From Pyrobaculum calidifontis JCM 11548 (lineage in GTDB: Archaea; Thermoproteota; Thermoprotei; Thermoproteales; Thermoproteaceae): a stretch of 32,000 nt of DNA. The notes below the pieces were generated by a model, which made no database searches, had not been told where the DNA came from, and saw nothing but the letters and a program-made list of their open reading frames with translations. The position numbers and the translations under genes were made by a program. The stretch lies in contig NC_009073.1 in the NCBI RefSeq assembly GCF_000015805.1, positions 300,001 through 332,000 of the forward strand, written 5' to 3'. Positions 5,422-31,389 of this stretch are shown piece after piece. Each line of letters starts with the position of its first letter. Position 1 is the first letter of the stretch.

Positions 5422-6576
5422 ATGCGGCGGGGCTCTATCGTGGTGAGGGGGTATAAGCATCTTGACCCCTACGGCGCCATTCAGCCCCCCATATATCTCG
5501 CCGCGCTTTTTCGAATGGAGGGGGAGGCACAGCGCTCTGACCGGGGGCTTGATTTAAAGTACAGCAGGGAGGATAACCCAACTCTCAGGCCCTTTGAAGA
5601 AGTAGTGGCAAAGCTTGAGAGCGGCGTAGACGCCTTGGCCTTTAACAGCGGGATGGCCGCCATCTCCGCCGTGTTCATGGCCCGCCTGGCCGGCGGAGAT
5701 GTGGTATATGTGCCAATGGAGGCGTATGGGGCAACTCTAAGGCTTTTAGACTCCCTAGGCAAATTTGGGGTTAAGGTGGTGAGGGGCTTTCCTGACACTG
5801 AGCCGTTTATTGAGGGGATAAAGGCCGCCAGGCCTAGGCTAGTGTTTTTTGAGACTATTTCAAATCCAACTCTCAGGGTATTAGACTTGCCAGAAGTGGT
5901 CAAGGCCGCCAAAGACTTGGGCGCCGAGGTAGTGGTGGACAACACTTTTGCAACCCCTCTACTCATCACTCCGCTTGAACACGGCGCCGACTTAGTTGTC
6001 CACTCTGTCACAAAGTATTTGGCTGGCCATAACGACGTAGTTGGCGGCGTAGTTGTGGCCAAGTCCAGGGAGCAGGTGGAGGAGCTTTGGCTTTGGAGGG
6101 CCATGCTGGGCGGCATTATGCAGCCGTGGGAGGCCTACCTCGCCTTTAGGGGCGTGAAGACTCTAGTAGTCAGATTTGAGCGACAGTGCCGCTCCGCCAT
6201 GGCAATTGCAGAGTACTTGGCAGACCATAGCAAGGTGTCTGAGGTGCTTTACCCAGGCCTGCCCACGAGCCCCTACTACCACGTGGCTAGGAGGCTCTTC
6301 GGCGACAAGTTCGGCGCAGTGGTGTCCTTCCGCGTGAAGGGGGGGAGAGACGCCGTGTTGAAGTTCTTTAAGTCGCTCAGGCTCATAACTCCAGGCCCCA
6401 GCCTGGGGGGCGTGGAGAGCATAGCCACATATCCAATAGCAAGCGCCGCCTCGCCGATACCTGACGAGGACAAGAGGAGGCTGGGCATCACAGAGGACTT
6501 GGTGAGGCTCTCCGTGGGTCTGGAGGACCCAGAGGACTTGATAGAGGACTTAGACCAGGCGCTTAGATCCACGTGA
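5422..6576 (+). CDS. Cys/Met-metabolism PLP-dependent enzyme (cystathionine gamma-synthase/lyase family)
   Basis: PLP-lysine motif HSVTKYLAGHNDVVGG, plus IQPPIY and DNTFATP motifs. The track ORF starts at 5344, but TTTATATA at 5392-5399 sits about 26 nt upstream of ATG 5422, so that start was chosen. ATG 5401 is also possible. Confidence 0.9.
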   Translation: MRRGSIVVRGYKHLDPYGAIQPPIYLAALFRMEGEAQRSDRGLDLKYSREDNPTLRPFEEVVAKLESGVDALAFNSGMAAISAVFMARLAGGDVVYVPMEAYGATLRLLDSLGKFGVKVVRGFPDTEPFIEGIKAARPRLVFFETISNPTLRVLDLPEVVKAAKDLGAEVVVDNTFATPLLITPLEHGADLVVHSVTKYLAGHNDVVGGVVVAKSREQVEELWLWRAMLGGIMQPWEAYLAFRGVKTLVVRFERQCRSAMAIAEYLADHSKVSEVLYPGLPTSPYYHVARRLFGDKFGAVVSFRVKGGRDAVLKFFKSLRLITPGPSLGGVESIATYPIASAASPIPDEDKRRLGITEDLVRLSVGLEDPEDLIEDLDQALRST

Positions 6577-7706
6577 ACATCTGCGTCAAGTGCAGGGGGA
6601 GGAAGCTCCTCTGCGGCTTGCCGAAGTGTCCAATTGAGCCGAGGGCAAGGGCTTTCCACCTGGCGCTGAGGCGCATTTCTGGGCGCGAGGTCTTTGGCTC
6701 TACGCCGCCCTCTGTCATCGTTGGCGAGTTTGGGTGGCCCAGCGTGCGCGTCTACCTTGGGGAGCCTCCCGAGGTCTTTGGAGAAGAGGCAAGGCGCTAC
6801 GACGACCCCCGCCTCTTGTGGGGGCTCTCGCTTGAGGAGATCTCTGCACTACGGAGCTACATGGCCTTTGGGGTTAAGACTGCGAGGACGCCTTGGGAGT
6901 TGGGCGAGCTGGCGTTTGTCTATGTCTCTTCGAGGCCTGTGGACGTGGAGATGAGGCTGGAGAAGCCGCCTGTGCCGTCGCTTAAGTTTGACCTTAGGGA
7001 GAAGCCGCTGGGCCCCAGAGCCCCGCTGGAGAGCGCGAGGGTTGTGGAAAATCCGTCGCCGCCGCGCCCGCTCGAGTCGTTGATAAACGACGACGTGTCT
7101 GCCCACGAGGCGGTGGTCGAGCTCTACTCACGCGGCGTTGACTTGTACATAATTCAGAGGGCCTTTTCCCTCGGCCTACTGGGGGCTAGGCACAGGAGAC
7201 GCCTAGTCCCATCTCGCTGGGGGATAACTGCGGTGGACGTGGCTGTGGGCAACTGGCTCGCCGAAGCCGTGAGACACTTCGGCGAGGTGCCGAGCCCTCT
7301 GTACGGCTACGGCGAATATTTGGACAATAGGTACCTCGTGGTAGTTGTGCCGGGCCCCCTCCGCTTTGTATACCTCGAGAGGTGGCAACAAGGCGACAGA
7401 GCGGCGGAGGTGTTAGTGAAAGAGGACCCGAGGGGCGTGAGGTCTACAATGGACGGCGGCTTTGAGGCGGCGAGAGTGGCGGTTTTGGAGAAGCTATACG
7501 CCATGAGGAGGAGGGGGTCCGTGGGCATTGTGAGGTGGATCGGCGAGGGGTACTACGTCTCTGTGGGAAACTGGCAGATTAGGGAGACTGTGCGGAGAAT
7601 TCAGCTGAGGCCGCTAGACGAAGAGTATAAGGCATACGTGGAGAGGGTCGGCGCAGACCCTCTGAAGCTACTCGGCACATCCAAGCCGCTTACAGACTTC
7701 ATTTAA
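6573..7706 (+). CDS. nreA: archaeal Nre-family DNA repair protein (NreA-like)
   Basis: N-terminal Cys cluster CVKCRGRKLLCGLPKCP typical of the Nre N-domain. Length of about 377 aa. The extreme C-terminus SKPLTDFI resembles a PCNA-interacting (PIP-like) tail. GTGA overlap with the upstream gene. Confidence 0.7.
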   Translation: MNICVKCRGRKLLCGLPKCPIEPRARAFHLALRRISGREVFGSTPPSVIVGEFGWPSVRVYLGEPPEVFGEEARRYDDPRLLWGLSLEEISALRSYMAFGVKTARTPWELGELAFVYVSSRPVDVEMRLEKPPVPSLKFDLREKPLGPRAPLESARVVENPSPPRPLESLINDDVSAHEAVVELYSRGVDLYIIQRAFSLGLLGARHRRRLVPSRWGITAVDVAVGNWLAEAVRHFGEVPSPLYGYGEYLDNRYLVVVVPGPLRFVYLERWQQGDRAAEVLVKEDPRGVRSTMDGGFEAARVAVLEKLYAMRRRGSVGIVRWIGEGYYVSVGNWQIRETVRRIQLRPLDEEYKAYVERVGADPLKLLGTSKPLTDFI

Positions 7707-8001
7707 TGTACAGCAGGCCCTCTGCCGTAGTGCCTATTGTGAGCAAGCCCTCAGTCTTTTCCACTGTCATTATTCTCCGCTTCTCCACGGCTACGCCGCA
7801 CGAAAAGTAGAGGCGGTCGTCGAGGTCCCACACCTTGACTTTTCCGTATGCGATAACTTCGCTTCCGGGGTTTTCCAGCGCTATTTTGACTGCGGTACAA
7901 ACAGACGGCGTCGAAAAATTATCAAACACGGTGAACAGTACAGCGAGGGTAGCCACGGCTAAGAGGAGTGTGGCAATTAAGCCCAGATATACATCAATCA
8001 T
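7699..8001 (-). CDS. cluster gene Q: small protein with a single N-terminal hydrophobic helix (pilin-like topology)
   Basis: MIDVYLGLIATLLLAVATLAVLF is followed by a beta-rich domain. ATGA overlap with gene P. Last gene of the cluster. Confidence 0.5.
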   Translation of the reverse strand: MIDVYLGLIATLLLAVATLAVLFTVFDNFSTPSVCTAVKIALENPGSEVIAYGKVKVWDLDDRLYFSCGVAVEKRRIMTVEKTEGLLTIGTTAEGLLYIK

Positions 8002-8265: not shown

Positions 8266-8778
8266 TCAACACTTTACTAAGACGAGTTTGACAACCATGG
8301 GGATAGTGGCTAATAAGAGCTGTTGTACATATACCTCCGTGGTAAAGCGAGTGCCTTCGCGGCATATAGCGGCGAAGTGCCGCACTTCTACAACCTCTTT
8401 TACTTCAACTGTGGGAAGTACGTAAGAGCAGTAAGTGACGTGGACTGTGGCGTTGTTATGCGTGTAGGTCTTATTCAACAGCGCTGTGGGATATTCACAT
8501 TGGCCTACGGCGAGTATATATACTGGGAGATGCGGCGATTCGGAGATGTTTCTCCTCAGAACCCACTTGCCGTCTTCAAAGATGTAATATGCCTTAAACG
8601 TCTGGAGGGTGAGCGGCCGCGGCGACGACGCGACCTTTTCTGCCGCAATAGACTCTGCCACTGTCCTAGTGTAGGGGTCTGCGTACTGCATCGCCAGCAA
8701 CACCGCGGCGACCACGGCCGCGGTGGCGGCGGTAGACGCCGCAACTAGTATGAGGTACCTCAGCGTGAGCACGGCCAC
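8266..8778 (-). CDS. cluster gene O: N-terminally anchored protein, 170 aa
   Basis: GTG start. The N-terminal hydrophobic stretch is LILVAASTAATAAVVAAVLLAM. It overlaps the end of gene N by 19 nt. The start is uncertain. Confidence 0.5.
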   Translation of the reverse strand: MAVLTLRYLILVAASTAATAAVVAAVLLAMQYADPYTRTVAESIAAEKVASSPRPLTLQTFKAYYIFEDGKWVLRRNISESPHLPVYILAVGQCEYPTALLNKTYTHNNATVHVTYCSYVLPTVEVKEVVEVRHFAAICREGTRFTTEVYVQQLLLATIPMVVKLVLVKC

Positions 8779-11699
8779 GCCTCTACCGTTGAGGTCTCCG
8801 TCTGTGGAAGATCAGCCCATGTCTTTGAGAGCAACGCCGCGCGGGGCCTGGGGATTTGCGCTTCGCCGTTGGGGTAGACGAAGGCCCTCCAGTCGACTAT
8901 TGGCAAAACTAGCACGGGGTCCCACGGCGCAATCTTTGAGGCATTTACGACGGCACATGAGCCGGCGACCGCCGCTTTTTGTACCCATGTGCCATCTCTG
9001 AAGAGGTAGAAGGCGAAGCCCACGACGCCAGTGCCCCCGCTTACTTTGACTAAGCCGCGTTCTGGATCCGCCGCCTCAAAAATGGGCAACACTTGGACCT
9101 CTTTGACTCTTGCCTTTATCCAGATCTCCACTTCTCCCCAGAAGTCCCCCGCTACTGACAGCTGGGCCGCCCCTTGCGCAACGTCGGCGTATGAGCGGCC
9201 GGACACCGTCGTCGTGACGCATCTAAAGGCGAATCTCCTACCGCCTTCGCCAGCTCCAGGTAGCCCGTGGAAGTAGGGCGAGCCGCCCAGGTACAGCAAC
9301 GCGGTGGTGTTTAGCGGGACTTCTGCGTTTGCAGTATACACCGGGGGCGCGCGGCTGGTCGAGCGCAGTTCCAACGATACGTCGTTGGTTACAATGAATG
9401 CGAAGTGGTACCGCTTCCCCGTTTCGGCCTCTTCTATTGTTACTAGCACGGGCCCTGTGTAGTTGCCTGGCGTTGTGTATATAGAGTTCACGTTGATTTG
9501 AGCGCTTTCGCACGGCGCCAGCGGCTTATACGGAAGCCACCAGCCAGGCCCCACATATACCCCGTCGAGGGGGACCCACGTCTTTGACACGGTGGCAAGT
9601 GGGGCGTTGCATATGGGCTCGTGAGCTATTCCGGAGGCGGTTCTCTGGAGGATTTGCCCCCTCTCGACGTATATACGTACCGTAACTGTACGCGGCTCGC
9701 CTATGTATGTTATCAGCAGGGAATACCCAGCGCCAGGCAGTGCCACATCTGCCACGGGGCTTGGAGTGGGGCCCCACAGCGTTGGCTTTATGTCGACGCA
9801 TATCGGCGAGGTGCACGCCGTAGTTGGCACTAGTGACACAAGCCACGGCGAAGTCTCATTTGACAACATGCCTGCGAGGCCGAGGGGTAGTGCGTCTGTC
9901 CACCCGGCAGGGAGCTCCCAGTTGGACACGCCCTCGAAGAGGTAGTTGTAGAATTGGCCGTAGTAGGGGCTTGAGGTGTAGTAGAACAGCTTTGCGTTGT
10001 CTCTCGTGGTGTTCCTGTACTCTCCGAGGGAGGTGGCCAAGCTCACGAGGGAGACCCGTGCACCACGTATGACCAATTCGCTTGGCACGTCGAAGTCGCC
10101 CGTGGCTGGGTTAAATGCCCACGTCCTAAGCCGGTATACGTGGTCGTAGAAGAGCGCGTAATCTCCATAGAGCATGGACAAGAGGTCTGTGCCGCGCCCA
10201 TTTAGGAAGGAGTAGGGAATTAACCAGTCTACAAGCTCCAGCCACCTCATGGGCCACCCCCTGCCTGGCGGCCCCACTCTGGCGTAGCTTACCCACACCC
10301 CATTGACCTTGGTGAAGACGGGCTGTCTATAGACGCATGTGAAGATCTGCTGGGGCCACTGGGCACAGGGATCTGGGGGCGAATACCACGCCGTCTTAAT
10401 TGCACGCGTGTTTTCGTCTACTGCGATTTGAAGCTCGGCCCATTTAACTCCATGTCCAGTACTCAGCGGTGGCGTAGAGTATGCAAGTTTCTTGTTCTTG
10501 CTCACCTCCTCGTAGTCTATCAGCGCCCCGTCTGTGCCAGCCGCCCTCAAAAATGTTCCAAGCGCAGAGTTGATCCAAACGCGGCGCGCGGCCATGTCTA
10601 ACTCCCAGAGGACGGCAACTCTGAAGCCTACGGCCGAGCCAAGGGGCAACTCTATAGAGATGCCGCGCGTAAGCGCGGGCCGCAACGCTGATGGGGCAAA
10701 GGCTATGTACGGTCTTAGGTTAAAGCTTGTTTTAAATGCCGCAGAGTACATAGTACTGTTCCAAACCCAGTGGGTTCCCACCCAGGTGGAATTGCCAACG
10801 CTGTTTATTAAAAAACAGAAGGGCGGACTGCAGTCGGTTGGCTTACCAAAAACGGCGCGGGAAATATACAGCGGAATTTCGCGCGGCGGCGCCAGTTCGA
10901 CAGAGCCCCACAGCTCCGGCTCAGCTGTCACCGAGATTGAGATGTCGTACAAAAAGCTCCCAGACGATGGAAATGGAGCATTGCGGTATGTCCACGGGTT
11001 CGGTATTTTTGCCTCAACGCCGCCCCATTTAACTACGTCGCCAGCTTTAAAGCCGTTGATCTCCTCGGCGTGCCACGAGCTAGGGGCGCTTACGCTATAG
11101 GTGTTCTGCTCGTCAAAAGATATAAAACATAGGGAGCCGCCGCAAATCCAAAGGTCCTTTACAACATAGTCGCAGTACCAAGGCACGCGATATTGAATAG
11201 GAAGAGAGACCTTGATAGACCTGTAATCAAAGAACTGCACCTGGCTCCTCGAAGTCTCAAACTTTATTGTGTCGCTCACTCTATTCGGCGTCTTAACCAC
11301 TTTACAAAAATATAGGGTTAAGCCGCTCCAATCCACCCTGTAACGCTCTAAAACCCAATCTTGGCCTGGCGCAAAGTAGTAGAGGTTTAACACGTAGACA
11401 AGGTCTCTATCCCACCTCCCCTCCCAAGCAGTTGAGAAGACTCTAACAGTTGGCCAAGCGCGGTTACGCAAGTCTAGAAATTCCACATCCCACACACTAG
11501 TAGTTGTAGCTCCGTACGGATATTCAACACTTACGAGGTCCCCGTATGCAGGGGCAATGGTGTTAAATTTAAAACTGATGTGTACAGTGTCCGTCGTCTT
11601 GTATGTAAAATTGCCCACATATGTTATAGTTATAGCCGCATAGAGTGGCGACGCTAGAGTGCCCAACGTGATTACCAGGGTGAGGAAAAGCCACAGCAT
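8760..11699 (-). CDS. cluster gene N: 979-aa secreted, Trp/Tyr-rich, sequon-rich protein of unknown function
   Basis: This is the longest ORF in the window. Signal-peptide-like N-terminus MLWLFLTLVITLGTLASPLYA. At least 8 N-x-S/T sequons (NFT, NST x2, NTT x2, NET, NYT, NAS). No TM segment after the signal. No motif I can recognise. Confidence 0.85.
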   Translation of the reverse strand: MLWLFLTLVITLGTLASPLYAAITITYVGNFTYKTTDTVHISFKFNTIAPAYGDLVSVEYPYGATTTSVWDVEFLDLRNRAWPTVRVFSTAWEGRWDRDLVYVLNLYYFAPGQDWVLERYRVDWSGLTLYFCKVVKTPNRVSDTIKFETSRSQVQFFDYRSIKVSLPIQYRVPWYCDYVVKDLWICGGSLCFISFDEQNTYSVSAPSSWHAEEINGFKAGDVVKWGGVEAKIPNPWTYRNAPFPSSGSFLYDISISVTAEPELWGSVELAPPREIPLYISRAVFGKPTDCSPPFCFLINSVGNSTWVGTHWVWNSTMYSAAFKTSFNLRPYIAFAPSALRPALTRGISIELPLGSAVGFRVAVLWELDMAARRVWINSALGTFLRAAGTDGALIDYEEVSKNKKLAYSTPPLSTGHGVKWAELQIAVDENTRAIKTAWYSPPDPCAQWPQQIFTCVYRQPVFTKVNGVWVSYARVGPPGRGWPMRWLELVDWLIPYSFLNGRGTDLLSMLYGDYALFYDHVYRLRTWAFNPATGDFDVPSELVIRGARVSLVSLATSLGEYRNTTRDNAKLFYYTSSPYYGQFYNYLFEGVSNWELPAGWTDALPLGLAGMLSNETSPWLVSLVPTTACTSPICVDIKPTLWGPTPSPVADVALPGAGYSLLITYIGEPRTVTVRIYVERGQILQRTASGIAHEPICNAPLATVSKTWVPLDGVYVGPGWWLPYKPLAPCESAQINVNSIYTTPGNYTGPVLVTIEEAETGKRYHFAFIVTNDVSLELRSTSRAPPVYTANAEVPLNTTALLYLGGSPYFHGLPGAGEGGRRFAFRCVTTTVSGRSYADVAQGAAQLSVAGDFWGEVEIWIKARVKEVQVLPIFEAADPERGLVKVSGGTGVVGFAFYLFRDGTWVQKAAVAGSCAVVNASKIAPWDPVLVLPIVDWRAFVYPNGEAQIPRPRAALLSKTWADLPQTETSTVEAWPCSR

Positions 11700-14707: not shown

Positions 14708-14720
14708 GGAAAAAGTTTAG
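14708..14720 (-). promoter_or_regulatory. stop-embedded A/T motif CTAAACTTTTTCC, 30 nt before the ATG of the pilin gene
   Basis: The TAA stop of gene H (14717-14719) is inside the motif. The geometry fits a TATA box for a leaderless pilin mRNA. The T5 run could also act as a terminator. Confidence 0.45.
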
Positions 14721-15913
14721 AGAATTTGTAGGAGGAGTTGCTCCACTAAGAGGCCAGCTGTGCCGCCGATGAGCGCCGCCTGATGTAGCCCCATTGGGAT
14801 TAGAAAAACTGCGACATATGACGCCGTGACGAGGGACAGTCCTTTGGATAGTACTTCTCGAACTTCGTCGTAGGGCGGGGGAGTGAAGAAGGGGTTCACT
14901 GCGGAGGAGTCCTGAAGCGCGTGGACGGACGTAGCCACGGAGAATGCCAGCACCAGCACCGCGGCGGTGAACAGTAGGAAAAAGGCAGCGGCTTGTTTAG
15001 CCATCTTCCTCACCGCGCTGGCTTCTATGTCCACGATGGATTGTATATACTCGACAGCCTTTATTGCAAAGACGCCGCCAGCCTCGGTGATGGCCCGATA
15101 CATGCTCTTTGCCAGCACGAAGTAGCGCGAGGGGATATAGTAGCCGTAGGCCACCTTGGCCGCGGTTTTAAACTTAGACGTGAGACGCGCCAAGATTACG
15201 TCCGGCGGAGCGCCCTCCTTCAGCATCGCAGCCGTTGCCCTCAGCATCGGCGGAACCTCTCTACGTATTTGAAACCACCACAGCCTATCCCCGGCCTTAA
15301 GCCAAGCAAGGGCAACGACGCCAAATGTCGCAAGGGCTAGCGGAGGAGAGGCCAAAAGGCCTAGGGGCACCGCCGCCAAAATGCCGAGGGGGATAGACCA
15401 GCTGTAGACGCGTAGGGGGTTTAGGTCTTGTGGAGATGTCAAAACCACTGCGGCTCCCGCGGCCAGCGCCGTGGCCGCAATTGTGGCAAGTATCAGCGCC
15501 GGGTCCACGGAGAATACGCCAATAGACCACAGGAAGAGGAAGAAGAGCGGGAGGAGGAAGAGGGCGCCGAGGGCGCTAGTGATTGACTCGAAAAGCCTAA
15601 CCCGCGCCTCCACCTTAGCCACGGCCAAGGCCTTCACAGACTCTAGAAACGTGGAGACTACTACGCCTCTGTCGACGCCTGCCTCCTCTTGCGCCAGGGC
15701 AAAGCCGTATAGCCTGACAACCTCGCTCTTGTCCTCTAGGAACTGGGTAGAGGGGGTTGGCATTAGGGACGCCACGAAGAGGCGGCGCGCCTCCTCCTCG
15801 TTAAGCTCCACGGCGTTAAGCGAGGTGTATTTCAAAGCCTCATTTCCAGACGACACGCTGAGGTATGTGGCAAATATGGGTGCCACAACCATGTAGAAAT
15901 CCTCTCTGTCCAT
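14717..15913 (-). CDS. cluster gene H: polytopic membrane platform protein (FlaJ/TadB-TadC/T2SS-F-like)
   Basis: 398 aa with a duplicated architecture. A soluble helical segment followed by TM helices occurs twice (about aa 1-110 plus TMs, then about aa 215-300 plus TMs). This is typical of type IV filament platform proteins. Confidence 0.75.
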   Translation of the reverse strand: MDREDFYMVVAPIFATYLSVSSGNEALKYTSLNAVELNEEEARRLFVASLMPTPSTQFLEDKSEVVRLYGFALAQEEAGVDRGVVVSTFLESVKALAVAKVEARVRLFESITSALGALFLLPLFFLFLWSIGVFSVDPALILATIAATALAAGAAVVLTSPQDLNPLRVYSWSIPLGILAAVPLGLLASPPLALATFGVVALAWLKAGDRLWWFQIRREVPPMLRATAAMLKEGAPPDVILARLTSKFKTAAKVAYGYYIPSRYFVLAKSMYRAITEAGGVFAIKAVEYIQSIVDIEASAVRKMAKQAAAFFLLFTAAVLVLAFSVATSVHALQDSSAVNPFFTPPPYDEVREVLSKGLSLVTASYVAVFLIPMGLHQAALIGGTAGLLVEQLLLQIL

Positions 15914-16528: not shown

Positions 16529-16541
16529 AGATAAGGTTTAG
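16529..16541 (-). promoter_or_regulatory. stop-embedded A/T motif CTAAACCTTATCT, 30 nt before the ATG of gene F
   Basis: The TAA stop of the secretion ATPase gene (16538-16540) is inside the motif. This is the weakest of the five copies. Confidence 0.3.
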
Positions 16542-18067
16542 GTGTATCCAAACCTCCTAGCCTCCTCGGCCACAGCGGCTTTAAAGTCCAGCCTCTTTCC
16601 CCAGAGCATTTCCACGATAGTCCTCCTAGCCTCAAGCGGGTCTTCGAACTCCGCCGCCTTTAAGACGGCCTCTACTCTCAGGGCGAGCTCTTGCTTCAAC
16701 TCCACGTCGTACATCTCCCGGACATATGCGGCAAGGCGCGGCGTCAGTTGCGAAACGTCCACAACCTTCACCTCTCTGCCCTCGGCCGCCAAGGCCTTCG
16801 CCTCTTTTACATACCTGGCCCCTGCCACGGCCGATAACTGAATGACGAGAATTGAGTCGAGGGCCTCCGGCGGGGCCTCGGCCTCCACGATCCTAGTCAC
16901 TGCGTCTCTCACAGTCTCTGCGTGCATGGTGGTCAAGGCGCCGTGGCCAGTGAGCTTGTAGCTCGCCAAGGTCCTCAGCTCGGCTGGCGTCCTCGCCTCG
17001 GCCAACGCCACCACCGTGTGAACAGTGCCGTATCTAAGCGCCTGGTCTAGCGCGGCCCACAGCTTCTCCTCATTGGGGACGGAGAGGTGTAGGAGTTGGC
17101 CCTCCAGCGGAGCCCAGATCTCCCTCGCGCCGCGCTCCACTGCCACCACTTGCACCCACGGGGGAACGAGGTAGAGGAGCTGGTTCAACTGCGTCGTCTT
17201 GCCAGAGCCCATCCCGCCGCTGAAAATCACGCCGCCCCTAGTCTCAAGCACAAGGGAGGCCAAGGCGAGTAGCTCAAGGCCCTCAACGCCGTAGGTGACC
17301 CCGGCGCTGGACTCCTCGAACCTGGGCCTCGTCAAATATGGCTTTAACAACGCCTTGGAGGGCTTCGGTACGCTTGACATTTTTCTAATATTGACGTTGT
17401 ACTCCAAGAGGTCAGCCGCAATCCTGGCCTTATACACTTGGTCCTCCCGGGTGAGCAACGGCTTGTCCATGGTAAGAGAGGGAACCAGCTGCTTAACTAC
17501 GACGTACATCAGCGGCTCTGGAATTACAATGTTAGTGGGCAACCTCAGCTCATTTCTCACAGCCACTACGCGCCTGTAGCGGCCCAGCTCCAACATTTGA
17601 AACTTGATGTAGTCCAGCTGTTCGCGCAGAGTCTTAGGCACATATGTGAACTTAGCCGCAGGCGCCACTGACTGCGGAATTACGATCTCAGTTAGAAAGG
17701 GGTCGCGCATCATTGCCTCCAGCGCCCCATACCCGGCGTACTCTCTTGCACCGCTCCACCTGTCCAAGAGGTAATGAACGACCTCTCTGTAGTCCTTGTA
17801 AAGCGCCCAGATCGCCCTATCTCCCAGGCCCTCTGCTATTGACTTCATCACGCGGGGGTACTCCCTCTCGTCCGGCGGCACGGCGCCGCGGAACATCACG
17901 AGCAACAAGGCCGTCTGCAACTCGTCGGGTAACTCTGGATCTACCACAACATACATGAGGTCGTCGGTGATACATATGTCGGTCCTCACTCCTCTGTCCA
18001 CGATAACGCCCTCCTTCTTTAGAACACATCGAGATGTCAAGCCCCTATCGGCATGCGCGTAGATCAT
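16538..18067 (-). CDS. cluster gene E: type II/IV secretion-family ATPase (FlaI/TadA/VirB11-like)
   Basis: 509 aa. Walker A motif SGGMGSGKTTQLNQL. Divergent Walker B region VVALAEARTPAE. His-box LTGHGALTTMHA. ATGA overlap with the upstream ParA-like gene. Confidence 0.9.
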   Translation of the reverse strand: MIYAHADRGLTSRCVLKKEGVIVDRGVRTDICITDDLMYVVVDPELPDELQTALLLVMFRGAVPPDEREYPRVMKSIAEGLGDRAIWALYKDYREVVHYLLDRWSGAREYAGYGALEAMMRDPFLTEIVIPQSVAPAAKFTYVPKTLREQLDYIKFQMLELGRYRRVVAVRNELRLPTNIVIPEPLMYVVVKQLVPSLTMDKPLLTREDQVYKARIAADLLEYNVNIRKMSSVPKPSKALLKPYLTRPRFEESSAGVTYGVEGLELLALASLVLETRGGVIFSGGMGSGKTTQLNQLLYLVPPWVQVVAVERGAREIWAPLEGQLLHLSVPNEEKLWAALDQALRYGTVHTVVALAEARTPAELRTLASYKLTGHGALTTMHAETVRDAVTRIVEAEAPPEALDSILVIQLSAVAGARYVKEAKALAAEGREVKVVDVSQLTPRLAAYVREMYDVELKQELALRVEAVLKAAEFEDPLEARRTIVEMLWGKRLDFKAAVAEEARRFGYT

Positions 18068-26177: not shown

Positions 26178-26262
26178 GCGGGGGTGCCCGAGCCAGGTCA
26201 AAGGGGCAGGGTTCAGGTCCCTGTGGCGCAGGCCTGCGTGGGTTCAAATCCCACCCCCCGCA
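26178..26262 (+). tRNA. tRNA-Leu(CAG), intron-less, long variable arm
   Basis: GCGGGGG-TG-CCCG...GGG-G-CAGGG-UU CAG GU-CCCTG-[15-nt variable arm]-GTGGG-TTCAAAT-CCCAC-CCCCCGC-A. 85 nt. CCA is not encoded. Confidence 0.95.
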
Positions 26263-26263
26263 T
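26235..26263 (+). repeat. attL-like copy of a 29-bp direct repeat (3' end of tRNA-Leu)
   Basis: TGCGTGGGTTCAAATCCCACCCCCCGCAT is identical to 28717-28745. Confidence 0.9.
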
Positions 26264-26318: not shown

Positions 26319-28316
26319 CTACATTCGCGTTGAGCAACATTCTTGGGGAGCAACGGCAAAGTGAAGCGAGCGGTGTAAGAGTGCGAAAAGAGCGGGGGCT
26401 ATTTCACGGATTGTTTCCACCGACCTTCGCTCGTGAATTCTTACCTCCCTCTTCTTGTGTAGTACTGTGACTCTTATCCCCACTGCCCTTAGCTTGGCTA
26501 CTATTTCCTCTACTTTGGACTTGTCGTACGGTATCACTCTGATATATACACGTCCACGGTCTTTTGCCATGACGATCCTCGCCATTTTGGCCATCTCCTC
26601 AAGTACACGTTTAATAGTTTCAACATCAGCTGTGGACATCACTGGCTTCACCTCTTTTATGGCGTCTTTCTCTGCGTCGTTTAACAAACGCACGACGAAG
26701 CCTAGCCTTGCCAACTCCTCAAGCTGAGTGTAGGAGAGCAACAACAAGTTCCTCTTAAACCTCGCCTTCAGCCCCAGTCTGTTTACAGCATCGTACAGCT
26801 TTACTCCTTTACCTTTCCCGATTGCAAACTCACCGCCGCCGTTATGCGTAAGCATGTATGTAGTGTCGTTGAGCTCCACCACGGCGGCCGCCGGGTAGTT
26901 CGCCAGCGTTTCAAACAGCCTGACAGTCTTCTCAAACGCTGGCGTAGGCGGCGTCGGCAAGAGCAGGCGCATGTGCCAACTCTGGAACTTCACCTCTTTG
27001 CCGACCGCCGTGCCACCAATTGCGTTAGCCAGGTCTTTTACAAGCGTTGTCTCTCCCTCCAACGTCGCTCTTAGCACCGACTTAGCAACCACTCTGAGCT
27101 CTACCGGCGTAATATACCCGTCGCCGATGACTAACATGTCGACCACATTGCTAAAGGCAATCCACGCCCCCACATCGTTGACGACATACATCTTGCCATA
27201 GCGCTTGAAGGTCTCCTCCCTAAGCGCCTTCAACGCGGCATAGCCACGGACGAGCACTTCCTCAGTCTTACCCAGCTTTATCCCGAACCATTCGTACGCG
27301 GCTTGGATGGCCTCCGCCGTTGTGTCAATAGGCCGTGCATCGACTGTGGGGTTTTCACATCCCCCGCTCTTAGTCACTTTGCGAATTGCCAGCTTAAACG
27401 CCAGCGGCGCCTTCGGCGCAATCCCCCTTACCACCGCGTACTCGGCCAGGGCAATCCAGTCGAATAGCCTCACCGCGACTTGTCCGAAGTTGCCAGCGGC
27501 ATGCCTAATCTCCCGCCTCCAGTCATCACTCAACAGCCAGCCCAAGTTCCTAAACAGCACCACTGGTCCCTTGTCTCTCCCACCGAGTAGTCTCGACACA
27601 AGCTTTGGCAACGGCACCTCTAGCCAAAGCCGCTTGTACTCCTCGTCTACGTCATAGGCCTCAACTGGTATCCCAGCTTGCTTGGCCTCCCATGCTACCT
27701 CCTTCAACTTATGTCCTCTCAACTCATCGCCAATTGGCACGTTGTCGTAGTATACATACAGTCTCTTCTCCCACAGCGCTATTGTGGCATACACCGGCCT
27801 TTCGAGGTACAGTGTCACGATCTTGCGGTTTGGGTTTAACTTGTCCGGCCTCGACACTCCCACTCTATAGCTGCCCCTCAGCCCCGCAAGCCCCAGCCCC
27901 CTAAACTTCTCCTCTACCACGGCCAGCGTCCTGATGAGCTTGCCACAAAGCGGCGCCGTGTCCTCAATGTACTGCCACATCAGCCGTATATCGGCTTCGG
28001 CGTAGCCGCACGCGCGGCCGGGGAGGCGGCACTTTCCACTCCTAAACCTTGCCAACTCGACATAGCGCCTGTACCCCTCCAGCTGGCGTTGACACTCCAT
28101 TTCCCATATTCCTGGTTCACTTTTGCAAGCCATGCCCCGTCCAACACACCCCCCATGTTGAACAAACAAAGGTACAATCCATGCATGGAGGGTCTCTCTC
28201 CACAGCTCCTTCAAAGTTCGTAACCCTGTCTCAATAGCCGAGCTCCTAGGCGGCTCTTGGCCGCATAGACATTTTTCTGGCTTAGTGGCGAGACGTGGCG
28301 GAGGCCTAAGCGCCAT
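26319..28316 (-). CDS. 665-aa protein of unknown function. It has a Cys-rich N-terminus and may belong to a lineage-specific repeated (PaREP2-like) family, which is unverified.
   Basis: Long uninterrupted ORF. There are 9 Cys in the first 125 aa (CLCG, GGCVGRGMAC, MECQ, GKCRLPGRACG, PLCG). No Walker A motif and no tyrosine/serine recombinase motif that I can recognise. It has two LAGLIDADG-like strings (see findings). Confidence 0.85.
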   Translation of the reverse strand: MALRPPPRLATKPEKCLCGQEPPRSSAIETGLRTLKELWRETLHAWIVPLFVQHGGCVGRGMACKSEPGIWEMECQRQLEGYRRYVELARFRSGKCRLPGRACGYAEADIRLMWQYIEDTAPLCGKLIRTLAVVEEKFRGLGLAGLRGSYRVGVSRPDKLNPNRKIVTLYLERPVYATIALWEKRLYVYYDNVPIGDELRGHKLKEVAWEAKQAGIPVEAYDVDEEYKRLWLEVPLPKLVSRLLGGRDKGPVVLFRNLGWLLSDDWRREIRHAAGNFGQVAVRLFDWIALAEYAVVRGIAPKAPLAFKLAIRKVTKSGGCENPTVDARPIDTTAEAIQAAYEWFGIKLGKTEEVLVRGYAALKALREETFKRYGKMYVVNDVGAWIAFSNVVDMLVIGDGYITPVELRVVAKSVLRATLEGETTLVKDLANAIGGTAVGKEVKFQSWHMRLLLPTPPTPAFEKTVRLFETLANYPAAAVVELNDTTYMLTHNGGGEFAIGKGKGVKLYDAVNRLGLKARFKRNLLLLSYTQLEELARLGFVVRLLNDAEKDAIKEVKPVMSTADVETIKRVLEEMAKMARIVMAKDRGRVYIRVIPYDKSKVEEIVAKLRAVGIRVTVLHKKREVRIHERRSVETIREIAPALFALLHRSLHFAVAPQECCSTRM

Positions 28317-28339
28317 GCGGCGAGCTCTTTATCCCTGCC

Positions 28340-28495
28340 GCTTTGTGCCTACCCGTGTTCTGGGTAGGCCGACGAATTTTAGCCGACTCCCCTCGGCAGA
28401 GAGGCGCTTTACTCACCCGTGTCACGGGTAGGTAGGGCACAACTTCGCCGTTGAAAAACGGCACCACAAGGCGGCCTTACCCGGAGCTAGGTAGG
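28340..28495. repeat. three imperfect repeat units with 64-bp period (yyACCCGkG-N4-7-GGTAGG), interleaved with hairpins
   Basis: The ACCCG cores are at 28351, 28415 and 28479. GGTAGG occurs at 28363, 28427 and 28490. Hairpins are GCCTACCC/GGGTAGGC (28347-28369), GCCGA/TCGGC (28382-28397), ACCCGTG-t-CACGGGT (28415-28429) and GCCGTT-gaaa-AACGGC (28447-28462). Confidence 0.7.
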
Positions 28496-28716
28496 CATTT
28501 TGTTCAATTTAAATAGGTTGGGCCGTGGACCTCACCGTCGGTGCGGCTGTGCCGGGGTGCTGGGGCTTTACGCAACGTAGAGGATTGCTTTGGTGTTCGT
28601 GGGCCAGAGACGCTTAGGCCTTGCCGAAACAGTGATGGCTGCTGACTTCCATTCCTTCGCCGACCTCGGTTGTGACGACCGCCTCGTAGAGATGTTCAAG
28701 GCGGATGTGGAGGAGT

Positions 28717-28745
28717 TGCGTGGGTTCAAATCCCACCCCCCGCAT
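28717..28745 (+). repeat. attR-like copy of the 29-bp direct repeat (displaced tRNA-Leu 3' fragment)
   Basis: Identical to 26235-26263. There is no tRNA 5' half upstream of it. Confidence 0.9.
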
Positions 28746-28794
28746 ACTCCTCTGCATGTGAGAGAAGTATATATGCTGGTCCTCCTATTTTCGC

Positions 28795-29931
28795 GTGTTA
28801 TTAAGGGTTGAGAATTTCAAGAGCATTGGGCACATGGATTTACGCCTAGCCTCACTCACTATTCTCATTGGGCCTCCTGGCGGCGGAAAGTCCAACATCT
28901 TAGACGCGGCGGCGTTAGTGGGCTATTTCGCCAGATTTCTACGCGACGAGTACGATGTACAGACCTCCGCGTACGAGCCGTTGCCTATTTTGGCCAGGTT
29001 TTCTGCCCCGCAACAGCTGTTTACCTACGGCGATATTACGAAAAGGGTCTTTATAGAGCTGGCCCCAGAGCCAGGGAAAGGAGCGGCGTTGGAGCTACAG
29101 TACAGCGGCGGTAGCCCTAAAGCCGTCTTCAACGGCGTCTCTGTGCCTTGGGACCTCATATTGGCTCGTCTTCCTATTCTAATGGCTCTCAACTTTTCGT
29201 CTTTTTTGTCGGCGTTGCGGCGTGCTGCAAATAATGAGCCGCTTATGGAGGCTAGGCTGTACGGCTACGATAGGTATGGCTTGTCCTCTCCTCACTGCGA
29301 AACCCGTCTGTCCTGCGGATTTGTGGCTAGGCTGAGGGGTCAGCAGTCTGTGCCTTATCCCAAGAACGTGTTGAGTGAGCTTGGGTGGAACGCCATGGCG
29401 TTGGCTAAGTCTGTGCGTGACGTGGTGGTTGAGCTAAATGCAACGTTGGAGGAGCTGGAAGTCGGCGTCGAGGTGAAGTTTCTACAGTCTGGGGCCGTGG
29501 TGGTCTTTGACCGGGATTACGAGGTGGAGTCCTCCTCTGTGTCAGACGCTGTGTTTAGGACGCTGTACTACTTAATGGCGGTGAGGACCTCCATGAACTA
29601 TGTAAAGCTCTACGGGCTGGAGGGGAGGTACGTCGTACTCCTCGAGGAGCCTGAGGCGCACGTATTCCCCTACTTCCTCTCCCTCTTGGCCAACTACTTG
29701 GCCCGGGCGGCGGAGCACATGTACGTAGTCGTTACTACTCACAACCCGCTCTTTGTCTCAATGCTGTGGGACAGAGTGAAGGAGCTGAAGACTTACTACG
29801 TGGCCAGGGATAGGGAGGGGCTGACGCGGGCGTGGGAAGTGGACGTCGGAAAGCTCGCCAGAGACCTTGCCACAGCCGAAGATCTGCTCTATATGCCGCC
29901 GCGGGAGGTTGTCGCTAAATATTCTACGTGA
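28795..29931 (+). CDS. ABC/SMC-type AAA ATPase (AAA_15/AAA_21-like, OLD/AbiLi/AriA-like N-terminal architecture)
   Basis: MLLRVENFKSIGHMDLRLASLTILIGPPGGGKSNILDA carries the Walker A motif. YVVLLEEPEAHVFP is a Walker B / D-loop-like motif, and VVTTHNP is an H-loop-like motif. GTG start about 24 nt downstream of TATATAT (28768-28774). Confidence 0.85.
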   Translation: MLLRVENFKSIGHMDLRLASLTILIGPPGGGKSNILDAAALVGYFARFLRDEYDVQTSAYEPLPILARFSAPQQLFTYGDITKRVFIELAPEPGKGAALELQYSGGSPKAVFNGVSVPWDLILARLPILMALNFSSFLSALRRAANNEPLMEARLYGYDRYGLSSPHCETRLSCGFVARLRGQQSVPYPKNVLSELGWNAMALAKSVRDVVVELNATLEELEVGVEVKFLQSGAVVVFDRDYEVESSSVSDAVFRTLYYLMAVRTSMNYVKLYGLEGRYVVLLEEPEAHVFPYFLSLLANYLARAAEHMYVVVTTHNPLFVSMLWDRVKELKTYYVARDREGLTRAWEVDVGKLARDLATAEDLLYMPPREVVAKYST

Positions 29932-29933
29932 GA

Positions 29934-30422
29934 ATGGAGTTGACCGTGGTTCCGGAGTGTTATGCTAACGCATGTTTTGCGCAGAAGCTGGTGGACATAC
30001 TACGCGCGGCTCACGGTGTAAACCCCAGAGTAATTCACCGTCGAGTGAGTGGACGCGATAGGATACTAAACATCCTCAAGCAACTTCCGCAGGACAATGT
30101 CCTCGTCATAATTGATTATGAGGTAGGGCCGGCTAGGAAGTACATAGATGAGAACTTTGACCTGGAGAGAGTTGTAGAAGGGATTTATGTGGGCGTTTTT
30201 AGACGTTCGCAGAGCGTGGTAGCTGTGGTGTTTGACCCCAGGATTGAGGAGGCGTTTATTTGCAGATATTTGAGAGAAAGGTGCAACGATGTAAATTGGG
30301 TAAGGAGGGTAAAAAGCGGCGAGGCCTGCATCGCTCTGGTGGAGCTATTTAATGGAGAAGCCGTGGCCGCCCTTCTGCGGAAAGTCGGCACGGCGATTGT
30401 GGAGAGGTTGGGGGGTAACTAA
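29934..30422 (+). CDS. small partner protein (about 162 aa) with strand-end acidic residues. It is a possible Toprim/PIN-like nuclease fold of unknown family.
   Basis: It starts 3 nt after the ATPase stop, or at GTG 29928 with a GTGA overlap. The pattern is TVVPE(7)...VLVIIDYE...VAVVFDPRIEE, i.e. hydrophobic strands ending in E / DxE / D. This resembles Toprim-like partners of such ATPases. No confident family call. Confidence 0.65.
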   Translation: MELTVVPECYANACFAQKLVDILRAAHGVNPRVIHRRVSGRDRILNILKQLPQDNVLVIIDYEVGPARKYIDENFDLERVVEGIYVGVFRRSQSVVAVVFDPRIEEAFICRYLRERCNDVNWVRRVKSGEACIALVELFNGEAVAALLRKVGTAIVERLGGN

Positions 30423-30447
30423 TATATTTTGGGCGTTGCTCTCCGCC

Positions 30448-31389
30448 ATGCTGTGGACTGTTTTGCTGTATGCAAATGGCACAGTCCTCCTGTTGCTCAA
30501 CGCCACCTTAGCCGGGGTTGTGGCCAACGTCTCTCTCCCGGCGTCTCCCCTCGCCAAGCCCTACGTCGCCCTCGACGGGGTGCCTGTGCCCTTCCTCTTC
30601 GAGGGGGACAGAGTCGTGGTGCCTCTGGGGGGCGGGGGCGTGGTGACAGTCAAGTACGTGCCCAGGCTCGGGGAGCTGGACGGCTTTCTCTACTTCAACC
30701 TAACTACGCCCGACCTCTTCGTGATATGGGCCGAGGCTGGCGTCTTGGCCCTCCCTCGCCTAACCGTGCTGAATTTCACCAAGGTGGGTAACGACGTGAT
30801 TATAGTGGCCAAGGGCCCCGGCGCCCTAGCCTACGCCAAGGTGTCAAATGTCACACGGCCCCCGGCATCCACGCCGCAGAGCACCCCAACGTCTACGCCC
30901 CCCAGCCCCGCCCCAGCTACTGCGCAGAGCATCACGCCGGCCCTCCCCGCCACAACAACGACGACGCCTGTTGTAAATGTGCCGCACACTCAAGCATCCA
31001 CGGCGTCCCCCTCAAGCGTGGTATCGCCGACTGCCGCGGCCCCGCCTATAGCGACCCCCGCCGGGCCTATCTCAACGGGTAGCCCCTCGCCCAGCGGCCA
31101 GCTTTTGCTGGCAATTGGCGTGGCCGCCGCCCTGGCGGCTCTGGCCGCCGTCTTTGTCAAAGGGAGACGCGGCGGTGGGGGTGGCGCTACTGTGGGCGGC
31201 CTCTCTGAGGTAGATGAGAGAATTTTGGCTTATCTGAGGGAGAGGGGCGGCGCCTATGAGTCTGAGATTGCCAGAGACTTGGGCATTCCGCGTACCACTG
31301 TGTTTAGGGCTGTGCGGCGGCTGGAAGAGGCGGGTCTCGTCATCGTGGAGAAGAGAGGCGGCAGGAATTTTGTTAGAAGAGTTGGCTGA
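30448..31389 (+). CDS. membrane-anchored winged-helix regulator (signal/ectodomain, Thr/Pro/Ser linker, TM, cytoplasmic wHTH)
   Basis: ATG 30448 (MLWTVLLYANG) lies about 22 nt downstream of AATATATTTT (30421-30430). The linker is an ~80-aa T/P/S-rich stretch. The TM helix is LLLAIGVAAALAALAAVFV. The C-terminus ERILAYLRERGGAYESEIARDLGIPRTTVFRAVRRLEEAGLVIVEKRG is MarR/ArsR/TrmB-like. Confidence 0.75.
   Translation: MLWTVLLYANGTVLLLLNATLAGVVANVSLPASPLAKPYVALDGVPVPFLFEGDRVVVPLGGGGVVTVKYVPRLGELDGFLYFNLTTPDLFVIWAEAGVLALPRLTVLNFTKVGNDVIIVAKGPGALAYAKVSNVTRPPASTPQSTPTSTPPSPAPATAQSITPALPATTTTTPVVNVPHTQASTASPSSVVSPTAAAPPIATPAGPISTGSPSPSGQLLLAIGVAAALAALAAVFVKGRRGGGGGATVGGLSEVDERILAYLRERGGAYESEIARDLGIPRTTVFRAVRRLEEAGLVIVEKRGGRNFVRRVG

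Follow-up and report, generated by a model that had tools for sequence, protein, structure and literature searches.

Organization of the locus

Pcal_0344 and Pcal_0345 are adjacent genes of Pyrobaculum calidifontis JCM 11548, and are considered here as a candidate two-gene defence module. Both lie in a 32,000-nucleotide stretch of DNA (contig NC_009073.1, positions 300,001 to 332,000 of the forward strand) that was analysed as a whole and is designated below as the window. All coordinates are those of the window unless a locus is named. Pcal_0344 (28795..29931, + strand) starts with a GTG codon, encodes 378 residues, and is annotated as 'AAA family ATPase'. Pcal_0345 (29928..30422, + strand) also starts with GTG, encodes 164 residues, and is annotated as 'hypothetical protein'. 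Homologue searches returned best E-values of 1e-234 and 1e-85 for Pcal_0344 and Pcal_0345, respectively, indicating that both genes are real. Neither gene is mentioned in any paper of the searchable literature.

The GTG codon of Pcal_0345 and the TGA codon of Pcal_0344 share a GTGA overlap. An alternative in-frame ATG codon at position 29934 would give a product of 162 residues. An earlier interpretation of this DNA, designated here the sequence-only reading, had proposed that the small gene is coupled to the ATPase gene either by the GTGA overlap, which is present, or by a start 3 nt after the stop codon, the spacing being in fact 2 nt. An A/T-rich box, AAGTATATATG (28766..28776, + strand), is located 19-29 nt upstream of the GTG codon of Pcal_0344, and TTCATATAAAAA is found at an equal distance upstream of the orthologues of P. 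neutrophilum, P. islandicum, and Thermoproteus tenax. The TATA box that had been assigned to the pair is therefore present as a sequence, and its position fits a putative archaeal TATA box driving the synthesis of a leaderless mRNA. Pcal_0344 and Pcal_0345 form an operon-like unit of two genes that is probably leaderless and translationally coupled.

Pcal_0344 is an ABC-type ATPase

Pcal_0344 is an ATP-binding cassette (ABC)-type ATPase belonging to the group that comprises OLD, PtuA, and the SMC heads (AAA_15/AAA_21). The protein harbors an N-terminal β-hairpin motif of the hxNFKS type (RVENFKS, residues 4-10), a Walker A motif or P-loop (GPPGGGKS, residues 26-33; 28870..28893, + strand), a Walker B motif and D-loop (LLEEPEAH, residues 282-289; 29638..29661, + strand), and an H-loop (TTHNP, residues 314-318; 29734..29748, + strand). 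The sequence-only reading had described a 378-residue ATPase with N-terminal and distal motifs, and these four elements are all present. Among 60 homologues, positions F8, K9, G26, G31, K32, S33, E284, H316, and N317 were invariant or almost so, full invariance being observed for the four P-loop residues G26, G31, K32, and S33. Residues E284, E285, H289, and H316 were conserved. The homologues retained the FKS, GPPxxGKSN, LLEEPEAHxFP, and THNP motifs in addition to an RLYGYDRYGL element, and a conserved VSDxxFR element occupied the position of the ABC signature. The Asp residue of the Walker B motif was always replaced by Glu (E284) in this family, which displays LLEEPEAH versus the commoner hhhhDE.

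Comparison with profile libraries confirmed this assignment. Pfam matches above threshold were obtained with AAA_21 (4.8e-11; C-terminal stretch 237-322) and AAA_15 (6e-10), and matches below the cut-offs were obtained at the N-terminus with SMC_N, AAA_23, and AAA_29. PADLOC, to which the sequence-only reading had looked for a check, matched Pcal_0344 with HEC-01A (4e-20), followed by PDC-M25A, Old, PDC-M07A, AriA, NsnB, GajA, and mad3, and had no match for Pcal_0345. The NCBIfam models MAD3, PtuA, and RecF were matched below threshold. In all these comparisons, the matches were confined to the N-terminal Walker A segment or to the C-terminal Walker B/H-loop segment. The nearest proteins of the PDB by sequence profile were 9n69 (an 'AAA family ATPase' from a retron complex), OLD 6p74, and PtuA. 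The AlphaFold model of Pcal_0344 displayed a pLDDT (predicted local distance difference test) score of 92.7 and a predicted template modelling (pTM) score of 0.92. Foldseek comparison of this model with the PDB retrieved OLD from Thermus (6p74), Rad50, SMC heads, and PtuA from Septu and retron systems (E-values of 6e-12 to 1e-9; template modelling [TM] scores of approximately 0.45-0.5). The protein is devoid of a coiled coil and contains a family-specific insert of approximately 190 residues. Pfam, PADLOC, the PDB profile search, and Foldseek thus agree with the placement of Pcal_0344 in the OLD/GajA/AriA class of ATPases that had been put forward from the sequence.

Pcal_0345 defines a family of small proteins with a conserved acidic cluster

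Used as a single query, Pcal_0345 had no match in Pfam, NCBIfam, PADLOC, PHROGs, or the sequences of the PDB. A word-indexed search retrieved 9 relatives, and an exhaustive profile search extended the family to 89 clusters, most of which comprised proteins of 140-190 residues. Proteins matched in multiple stretches by the latter search were rejected as relatives, as exemplified by P0159, which is a translated tandem repeat and a spurious match. The 25 relatives with source information that were returned by a word-indexed profile search were all annotated as 'hypothetical protein' and had no Pfam domain, except for the apparent fusion protein P0008 (see below).

Conservation was assessed in an alignment of 49 family members. 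Residues H37, D63, and E65 were found in all of the sequences, E10 in 48, and D103 in 46. Conservation of at least 90% was observed for E10, C11, N14, R43, I62, R70, F102, D103, P104, E107, and K129. The resulting signature of the family is E10-C-Y-A-N, H37, G-R-D, I-D63-Y-E65, F-D103-P-x-x-E107, and K129. The AlphaFold model of Pcal_0345 (pLDDT of 93.5) contains, from the N-terminus, a β-strand (3-9), an α-helix (12-29), a β-strand (31-35), an α-helix (43-52), a β-strand (57-63), an α-helix (68-76), a hairpin (77-91), a β-strand (94-102), an α-helix (106-114), and C-terminal helices after residue 114. In this model, successive strands carry the conserved residues at their C-terminal ends. E10-C11-Y12-A13-N14 (29955..29969, + strand) forms the β1-α1 loop, which is the location of the glutamate residue of Toprim domains. 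The invariant His37 (30036..30038, + strand) directly follows β2. I62-D63-Y64-E65 (30111..30122, + strand) ends β3, with DxE in place of the DxD of Toprim. F102-D103-P104-x-x-E107 (30231..30248, + strand) is located past the last core strand and aligns with the D(P/H)xxE(x)W motif of DUF4276-like partners of other ATPases. Finally, the near-invariant Lys129 (30312..30314, + strand) may correspond to the Lys/Arg residue in the active site of OLD nucleases. The arrangement of conserved residues at strand ends is that of an active site lining one edge of a parallel sheet. Thus, on the basis of the model, Pcal_0345 can almost certainly be regarded as an enzyme and not as an adaptor. The strand ends VVPE, IIDYE, and VFDP highlighted in the sequence-only reading coincide with the most conserved positions of the family, but the numbering of the acidic residues (E7/D62/E64) was off by one or two and should read E10/D63/E65.

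The family also displays a pattern of conserved cysteines. C112 and C119 co-occurred in 27 of 28 cases, and C16 was present in all 22 sequences harboring C134. The covariation of the pairs C112/C119 and C16/C134 suggests that they form two disulfides, which are common in hyperthermophilic Crenarchaea. At position 11, which adjoins the putative catalytic residue E10, Cys was present in 45 of the 49 sequences and Ser in 3.

The two genes are paired across archaeal loci

To identify pairs, hidden Markov models (HMMs) of both proteins were run over all fetched loci, which are designated by the letter L and a number, and proteins scoring above 290 bits were considered as full-length orthologues of the ATPase. 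In the loci that encode an ATPase orthologue and extend downstream of it, about two dozen in number, the small gene directly followed the ATPase gene on the same strand, with two exceptions. The pair was present in the window and in L003/L005, L004, L006-L019, and L047-L051, which include assemblies of Desulfurococcaceae, Thermoproteota, Ignisphaera, and Thaumarchaeota. The intergenic gap between the called genes ranged from -32 to +23 nt. The two exceptions were T. tenax and P. islandicum, in which the small gene was absent beside the ATPase orthologue. In P. neutrophilum, the small gene was truncated and lacked the N-terminal segment containing the ECYAN motif. In L007, L017, and L018, the small gene was split between frames. 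Scanning of genomes with the small protein as a single query retrieved 2 loci.

The pairwise identities of the ATPase and of the small protein were correlated in the 16 intact pairs (Mantel r of 0.81, p of 0.0002). This correlation is expected for a pair of co-inherited and interacting proteins, although simple linkage would lead to the same result. The pairing of the ATPase with a small enzyme-like partner, which had been noted for the P. calidifontis genes, is therefore a conserved trait.

A gene encoding a DUF2250 protein of 94-95 residues was located approximately 80 nt upstream of the ATPase orthologue of P. neutrophilum (L001, 3634-3918) and T. tenax (L002, 3632-3919). The same slot was occupied in P. 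islandicum (L052, 7697-7978) by a gene encoding 93 residues with no Pfam match on record. The protein encoded in this slot might be an alternative partner of the ATPase where the small partner has been lost or truncated.

Possible relationship of Pcal_0345 to the Toprim superfamily

The Toprim superfamily is defined by a Glu residue in the β1-α1 loop and a DxD motif after β3, and includes DUF4276 (Mad4) and RloB (PMC12065111). In the small family, E10 is conserved in 48 of 49 sequences and is located in the Pcal_0345 model between strand 3-9, which it directly follows, and helix 12-29, and an invariant DxE motif, D63-x-E65, occupies the DxD position at the end of strand 57-63. In distant metagenomic relatives of the ATPase, the slot downstream from the ATPase gene was occupied by genes for proteins of 150-215 residues belonging to DUF4276, DUF3226, or the OLD-like Toprim type. 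Alignment by hhalign of the 49-sequence small family with 7 DUF4276-like partners gave a score of 25.8 over 103 columns (P of 0.0042, probability of 8%). In the corresponding register, the E10 residue of AEC was aligned with the Glu residue of VEG, IDYE with DSE, and FDPxIEE with DPHVERW. None of 200 column shuffles reached this score (11.2 ± 2.2, maximum of 21.6). Addition of three more DUF4276-like partners increased the score to 29.4 over 110 columns (P of 0.001, probability of 21%), and the register was unchanged. A tblastn search of plasmids with three DUF4276 partners, intended to deepen this alignment, gave no match.

Weak similarities of the same type were obtained by other searches. 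The HMM of the small family was compared with 1,246 open reading frames (ORFs) of the fetched loci, and the top matches below threshold were proteins of 176 residues encoded next to a second ATPase in T. tenax (E of 0.033) and P. islandicum (E of 1.2). The T. tenax protein matched the PADLOC model mad4 (0.031) and aligned with the small family over VIDSEGE and VVVHPRHEKWLC. Scanned individually against Pfam, PADLOC, and NCBIfam, the 49 relatives gave a sole relevant match, that of one member with mad4 (4.4e-4). The Pfam model of DUF4276 (PF14103) was not matched by Pcal_0345 or by any of the 49 relatives at an E-value of 1 or less. Foldseek searches of the PDB and BFVD with the Pcal_0345 model returned a highest TM-score of 0.48, obtained with a phage RloB-like protein (E of 0.08), and no significant match in BFVD.

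Five lines of evidence thus point toward Toprim, each of them weakly. The sequence-only reading left open a Toprim-like, a PIN-like, or a new effector. Among the three, the evidence favors the Toprim/DUF4276-like possibility, if only weakly. The fold of Pcal_0345 is most likely that of a divergent Toprim/DUF4276-like domain, and the protein is a probable metal-dependent phosphodiesterase of this type.

Comparison with known systems in which an ABC ATPase is combined with a Toprim protein

HEC-01 is a PADLOC candidate system comprising the ABC ATPase HEC-01A and the small TOPRIM protein HEC-01B (bioRxiv 10.1101/2024.01.29.577857). The order of the two genes, encoding an ABC ATPase and then a small stand-alone Toprim-type protein, is the same as in the P. 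calidifontis pair. HEC-01A was the best PADLOC match of Pcal_0344, although this match only covered the N- and C-terminal ATPase motifs. In contrast, no PADLOC model named HEC-01B was matched by Pcal_0345 or its 49 relatives. In addition, HEC-01 occurs in bacteria, within Hma systems.

The Mad3 and Mad4 proteins of the methylation-associated defence system (MADS) also combine an AAA ATPase with a small DUF4276/Toprim partner. The mad3 model is among those matched by Pcal_0344, and mad4 is the only effector model that was touched by any member of the small family (1 of 49). However, the NCBIfam MAD3 model gave Pcal_0344 a score of 39.9 bits, far below the cutoff of 420. No methyltransferase or MADS-type family was detected in the ORFs flanking the pair or in the larger ORFs of the window that were scanned, the flanking ORFs being a 665-residue ORF without significant match and a downstream ORF encoding a TrmB-type helix-turn-helix (HTH) protein. 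AbiL and Mad3-4 are listed together as systems of ABC ATPase and Toprim proteins. In PARIS, the AriA scaffold releases the Toprim tRNase AriB upon triggering, leading to tRNA cleavage (PMC11464382), and this mechanism serves as the template for the one proposed below. PARIS resembles the P. calidifontis pair by the splitting of the ATPase and Toprim effector between adjacent co-evolving genes and by the match of AriA models with Pcal_0344 (5e-12). The differences are that the AriA models only matched the termini of Pcal_0344, that AriA is larger (approximately 53-55 kDa versus 43 kDa for Pcal_0344, which is devoid of the long insertions), and that AriB is a DUF4435 protein of approximately 35 kDa whereas Pcal_0345 (approximately 18 kDa) had no DUF4435 or AriB match. 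Furthermore, no viral or plasmid copies of the P. calidifontis pair were found.

The OLD proteins, including P2 Old (class 1) and GajA of Gabija (class 2), share with Pcal_0344 the same ATPase clade, Thermus OLD 6p74 being a top neighbor by both structure and sequence. OLD proteins catalyze two-metal Toprim chemistry with accessory Lys/Arg residues, K562/R487 (PMC7049728), and the chemistry proposed for Pcal_0345 is the same. In contrast to the P. calidifontis pair, which is encoded by separate ORFs, the ATPase and Toprim domains of OLD and GajA are fused. GajA also acts with the GajB helicase, and no helicase was detected in the ORFs flanking the pair or in the larger ORFs of the window that were scanned.

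The DUF4276 (PF14103) partners of AAA_21 ATPases resemble Pcal_0345 by the downstream position of their genes, by their length (160-215 residues), and by the order of their motifs (strand-Glu, strand-D-x-E/D, strand-D(P/H)-x-x-E). Since Pcal_0345, with 164 residues, is only slightly shorter than these partners, the much smaller effector described in the sequence-only reading was an overstatement. The small family differs from DUF4276 by the invariant His37, the ECYAN and GRD motifs, the β-hairpin insertion, and the paired cysteines. Thus, the P. calidifontis pair does not qualify as a member of PARIS, OLD/Gabija, MADS, or DUF4276, and it corresponds to HEC-01 in part (HEC-01A without HEC-01B). 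Its architecture matches that of the split systems associating an ABC ATPase with a Toprim-type protein (HEC-01, Mad3/Mad4, PARIS, and AbiL). The pair may be described as a compact archaeal version of the association of an ABC ATPase with a Toprim-like effector, with an effector family of its own that none of Pfam, NCBIfam, PADLOC, and PHROGs contains.

Distribution and gene neighbourhoods

Pcal_0344 was 91-94% identical to metagenomic sequences, then 53-58% identical to proteins encoded by contigs from metagenomes or metagenome-assembled genomes. The identity with the copies of P. neutrophilum, P. islandicum, and T. tenax was only 45-47%, and no other named Pyrobaculum species was present in the list of ATPase matches. 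The taxa encoding the pair comprise Pyrobaculum, Ignisphaera, Staphylothermus, Desulfurococcaceae, Methanomethylicota, and Thaumarchaeota. The distribution of the pair is therefore patchy, indicating that these genes are not universal housekeeping genes. Conservation throughout the Thermoproteales in a housekeeping context, which was the outcome opposed to defence in the sequence-only reading, was not observed.

The genes adjacent to the pair varied between loci. Gene pairs encoding HEPN and nucleotidyltransferase proteins of the toxin-antitoxin type were found in L047 and L051, DUF499 and DUF1156 genes in Ignisphaera (L049), genes for Mrr-type and PLD-type nucleases on either side of the pair in L014, and a TnpB gene in L012. 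A second pair encoding an AAA_21 ATPase and a DUF4276-like protein was present in tandem in L006. In T. tenax and P. islandicum, the ATPase gene was accompanied by AAA_5 and 429-residue genes and by another pair encoding an ATPase and a 176-residue protein. Mostly housekeeping genes were found in L050 and in the window, in which the neighbors include genes for phosphoenolpyruvate synthase, a Cys/Met pyridoxal phosphate enzyme, Nre, a major facilitator superfamily (MFS) protein, TauE, and a TrmB-type membrane regulator. Taken together, these neighbourhoods are suggestive of an accessory gene pool of the defence or toxin-antitoxin type.

Upstream of the pair, the window contains a tRNA-Leu(CAG) gene (26178-26262), which was the only RNA detected by an Rfam scan near the pair. 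An exact 29-nt direct repeat of the 3' end of this gene was present at 26235-26263 and 28717-28745 (+ strand), and shuffled sequences are expected to contain none by chance. The second copy delimits an insertion of 2,482 bp on its right side and lies outside the module. As had been stated, 50 nt separate the end of this repeat (28745) from the GTG codon of Pcal_0344 (28795). The pair is located outside the insertion, on the original flank of the tRNA gene, indicating that its position abutting the insertion is incidental. A larger island bounded by a further copy of the attachment (att) site was sought, and no such copy was detected within the window with up to 3 mismatches. Adjacency to a tRNA gene was discarded as a trait of the family since a tRNA gene was nearby in only 1 of 20 related loci. 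The proposed clustering of such modules at integration sites does not, therefore, extend to this family.

Proposed function of the pair

We lean toward the conclusion that Pcal_0344 and Pcal_0345 form an operon encoding an ABC ATPase and a small divergent Toprim/DUF4276-like nuclease that together act as an anti-virus module. The patchy distribution, the loss, truncation, or frameshifting of the partner gene in several loci, and the presence of defence or toxin-antitoxin genes next to some of the pairs may all be regarded as defence-like signs. A mechanism can be proposed by analogy with OLD, PARIS (AriA/AriB), AbiL, Mad3/Mad4, and HEC-01. Pcal_0344 would be both a sensor and a scaffold that binds the small nuclease Pcal_0345 and restrains it. 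The binding or hydrolysis of ATP by Pcal_0344 would be altered by a trigger, for instance an aberrant nucleic acid or a protein of the virus. In its altered state, Pcal_0344 would release or activate Pcal_0345, which would then cleave nucleic acid (DNA or tRNA). Catalysis would involve an acidic metal-binding cluster comprising E10, D63, E65, D103, and E107, aided by H37, R43, R70, and K129. The virus, or another mobile element, would be stopped as a result, possibly by abortive infection. The analysis establishes the class of the ATPase, the operon-like coupling, the conserved pairing and co-evolution, the catalytic type of conservation, and the patchy distribution, whereas the Toprim fold, the nuclease activity, the complex, the trigger, and the defence role are inferred.

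Several observations weigh against this proposal. Toprim, DUF4276, DUF4435, or RloB was not recognized in Pcal_0345 and its 49 relatives by any standard profile library, the probabilities assigned by hhalign were only 8-21%, and both the invariant His residue and the replacement of DxD by DxE are atypical of Toprim. The Foldseek search of the PDB with the Pcal_0345 model returned nothing significant (no E-value below 0.01), and its top weak matches were DHH proteins (RecJ/Cdc45) rather than Toprim proteins. In three Thermoproteaceae, the ATPase is present although its partner is not intact, indicating that the ATPase can persist alone. The neighbourhood in the window is mostly of the housekeeping type, as assessed from the larger ORFs. 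No relatives were found by scanning viral contigs with the ATPase alignment, and tblastn searches of plasmids with the ATPase and the small protein gave no match. Finally, HEC-01 gave no protection when it was tested in E. coli (bioRxiv 10.1101/2024.01.29.577857). The defence module envisaged in the sequence-only reading thus stands as regards the class of the ATPase and the pairing of the genes, its role in defence being suggested by analogy.

Alternative explanations concern the chemistry of the small protein and the function of the pair. Pcal_0345 could be another metal- or His-dependent phosphoesterase, for example a DHH-like enzyme or a new hydrolase of the Rossmann-like type, which would be controlled by the ATPase and have nucleotides or small signalling molecules as its substrates. 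The top Foldseek matches in the PDB and BFVD were indeed DHH-family proteins (RecJ, Cdc45, and DHH phosphohydrolases; E-values of 0.01-0.05), but the alignments were poor (TM of 0.3-0.39, root-mean-square deviation of 12-17 Å) and no DHH motif is present. The sole full-length alignment with a TM-score near 0.5 was obtained with the RloB-like protein. The invariant His37 and the near-invariant Cys11 are non-Toprim features, and every link to Toprim is below threshold. However, the DUF4276-like register of the motifs agrees over three independent comparisons, and related ATPases have Toprim-type proteins in the downstream slot. We regard this explanation as unlikely. A bolder possibility is that Pcal_0345 founds an archaea-specific effector family unrelated to Toprim, consisting of new His/Cys-assisted metal phosphoesterases (signature ECYAN...H...GRD...DYE...DPxxE...K) that a compact ABC ATPase would gate. 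The pair would then be an unrecognized anti-virus system of hyperthermophilic and ammonia-oxidizing archaea, with its own substrate and trigger. We give this possibility a small share of our confidence, similar to that given to the preceding one.

The pair could also have a role in genome maintenance or repair similar to that of Rad50-Mre11, SbcCD, or RecF, the ATPase recognizing DNA structures that would be processed by the partner. This function is rather improbable since the pair is patchily and not universally distributed, the closest relatives apparently belonging to other orders rather than to the sister species, the partner has been repeatedly pseudogenised, and Pcal_0344 is devoid of a coiled coil and is matched best by profiles of defence ATPases. 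Toxin-antitoxin or restriction-type genes also adjoin the pair at several loci. It would nonetheless account for the housekeeping neighbors in the window and L050, for the persistence of the ATPase in three Thermoproteaceae that have no intact partner, and for the comparable quality of the matches of the Pcal_0344 model with Rad50 and SMC heads on the one hand and with OLD and PtuA on the other. An explanation with very little likelihood, in our assessment, is that the pair is a selfish cassette of the toxin-antitoxin or addiction type, or old cargo of an element integrated into tRNA-Leu, without benefit for the host. Such an origin would be in keeping with the ancestral position of the pair, in which the tRNA gene located 50 nt upstream serves as an active integration site, with the Pfam label of AAA_21 ('putative AbiEii toxin'), and with the HEPN/MNT toxin-antitoxin genes that adjoin the pair in several loci. 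Against this possibility, the window contains no second att copy downstream of the pair, no integrase is encoded nearby, the guanine-plus-cytosine content of the pair equals that of its surroundings, tRNA adjacency is restricted to 1 of 20 related loci, and neither viral contigs nor plasmids yielded any copies.

The anti-virus module remains the function that we favor. To our knowledge, archaeal antiviral immunity beyond clustered regularly interspaced short palindromic repeats (CRISPR) and restriction is barely charted experimentally. The effector is absent from Pfam, PADLOC, and NCBIfam, implying that the module will be missed by current defence-finder tools. If correct, the proposal would extend to thermophilic archaea the sensor-effector principle that relies on an ABC ATPase together with a Toprim protein, and would provide a minimal thermostable pair (43 kDa and 18 kDa) for structural and mechanistic work. 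If the link to Toprim fails, the small protein would represent an enzyme family that is new. Conceptually, the module varies a familiar theme and should not greatly surprise specialists. The descriptive claims of the sequence-only reading were confirmed, small slips in numbering apart, and the pair is a good candidate archaeal defence module that lends itself to experiments.

Additional features of the window and related loci

The 2,482-bp insertion located between the direct repeats contains a single long ORF on the minus strand (26319-28316), which encodes 665 residues, and approximately 400 nt of non-coding DNA (28317-28716). Searches of Pfam, NCBIfam, PADLOC, PHROGs, and phage genomes (tblastn) with this ORF gave no match, and no integrase domain was detected in it. 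The insertion could be a minimal integrative element encoding an unrecognized recombinase or replication protein. On the other side of the pair, the downstream ORF (30352-31389) encodes a long Pro/Thr/Ser-rich region followed by a C-terminal winged helix of the TrmB/MarR type. This ORF overlaps the 3' end of Pcal_0345 by 71 nt if translation starts at the first ATG codon. The metagenomic protein P0008 is an apparent fusion of the C-terminus of the small protein with the downstream HTH protein.

In L006, the genes located right after the pair (6381-7972) encode an AAA_21 ATPase of 378 residues and, in an overlapping gene, a DUF4276-like protein of 160 residues. Two modules combining an ATPase with a Toprim-type protein are thus present in tandem, preceded by genes encoding MutS-domain-V and serpin proteins. 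The second pair found in T. tenax (L002, 1507-3416) and P. islandicum (L052, 2873-4976) encodes an AAA_21/AAA_15 ATPase of 460 residues and the 176-residue protein, which contains the motifs FVEDxHG, VIDSEGE, and VVVHPRHEKWLC and is the closest relative, below threshold, of the Pcal_0345 family. The nearby AAA_5 and 429-residue genes display a McrBC-like layout. This organization suggests that the region is a small island of the defence type.

Elsewhere in the window, two ORFs of the minus strand encoding 979 residues (8760-11699) and 398 residues (14717-15913) had no Pfam match and adjoin a gene for a T2SSE-type secretion or pilus ATPase located near 16538-18067 (- strand). This region may be an uncharacterized surface-filament or secretion locus.

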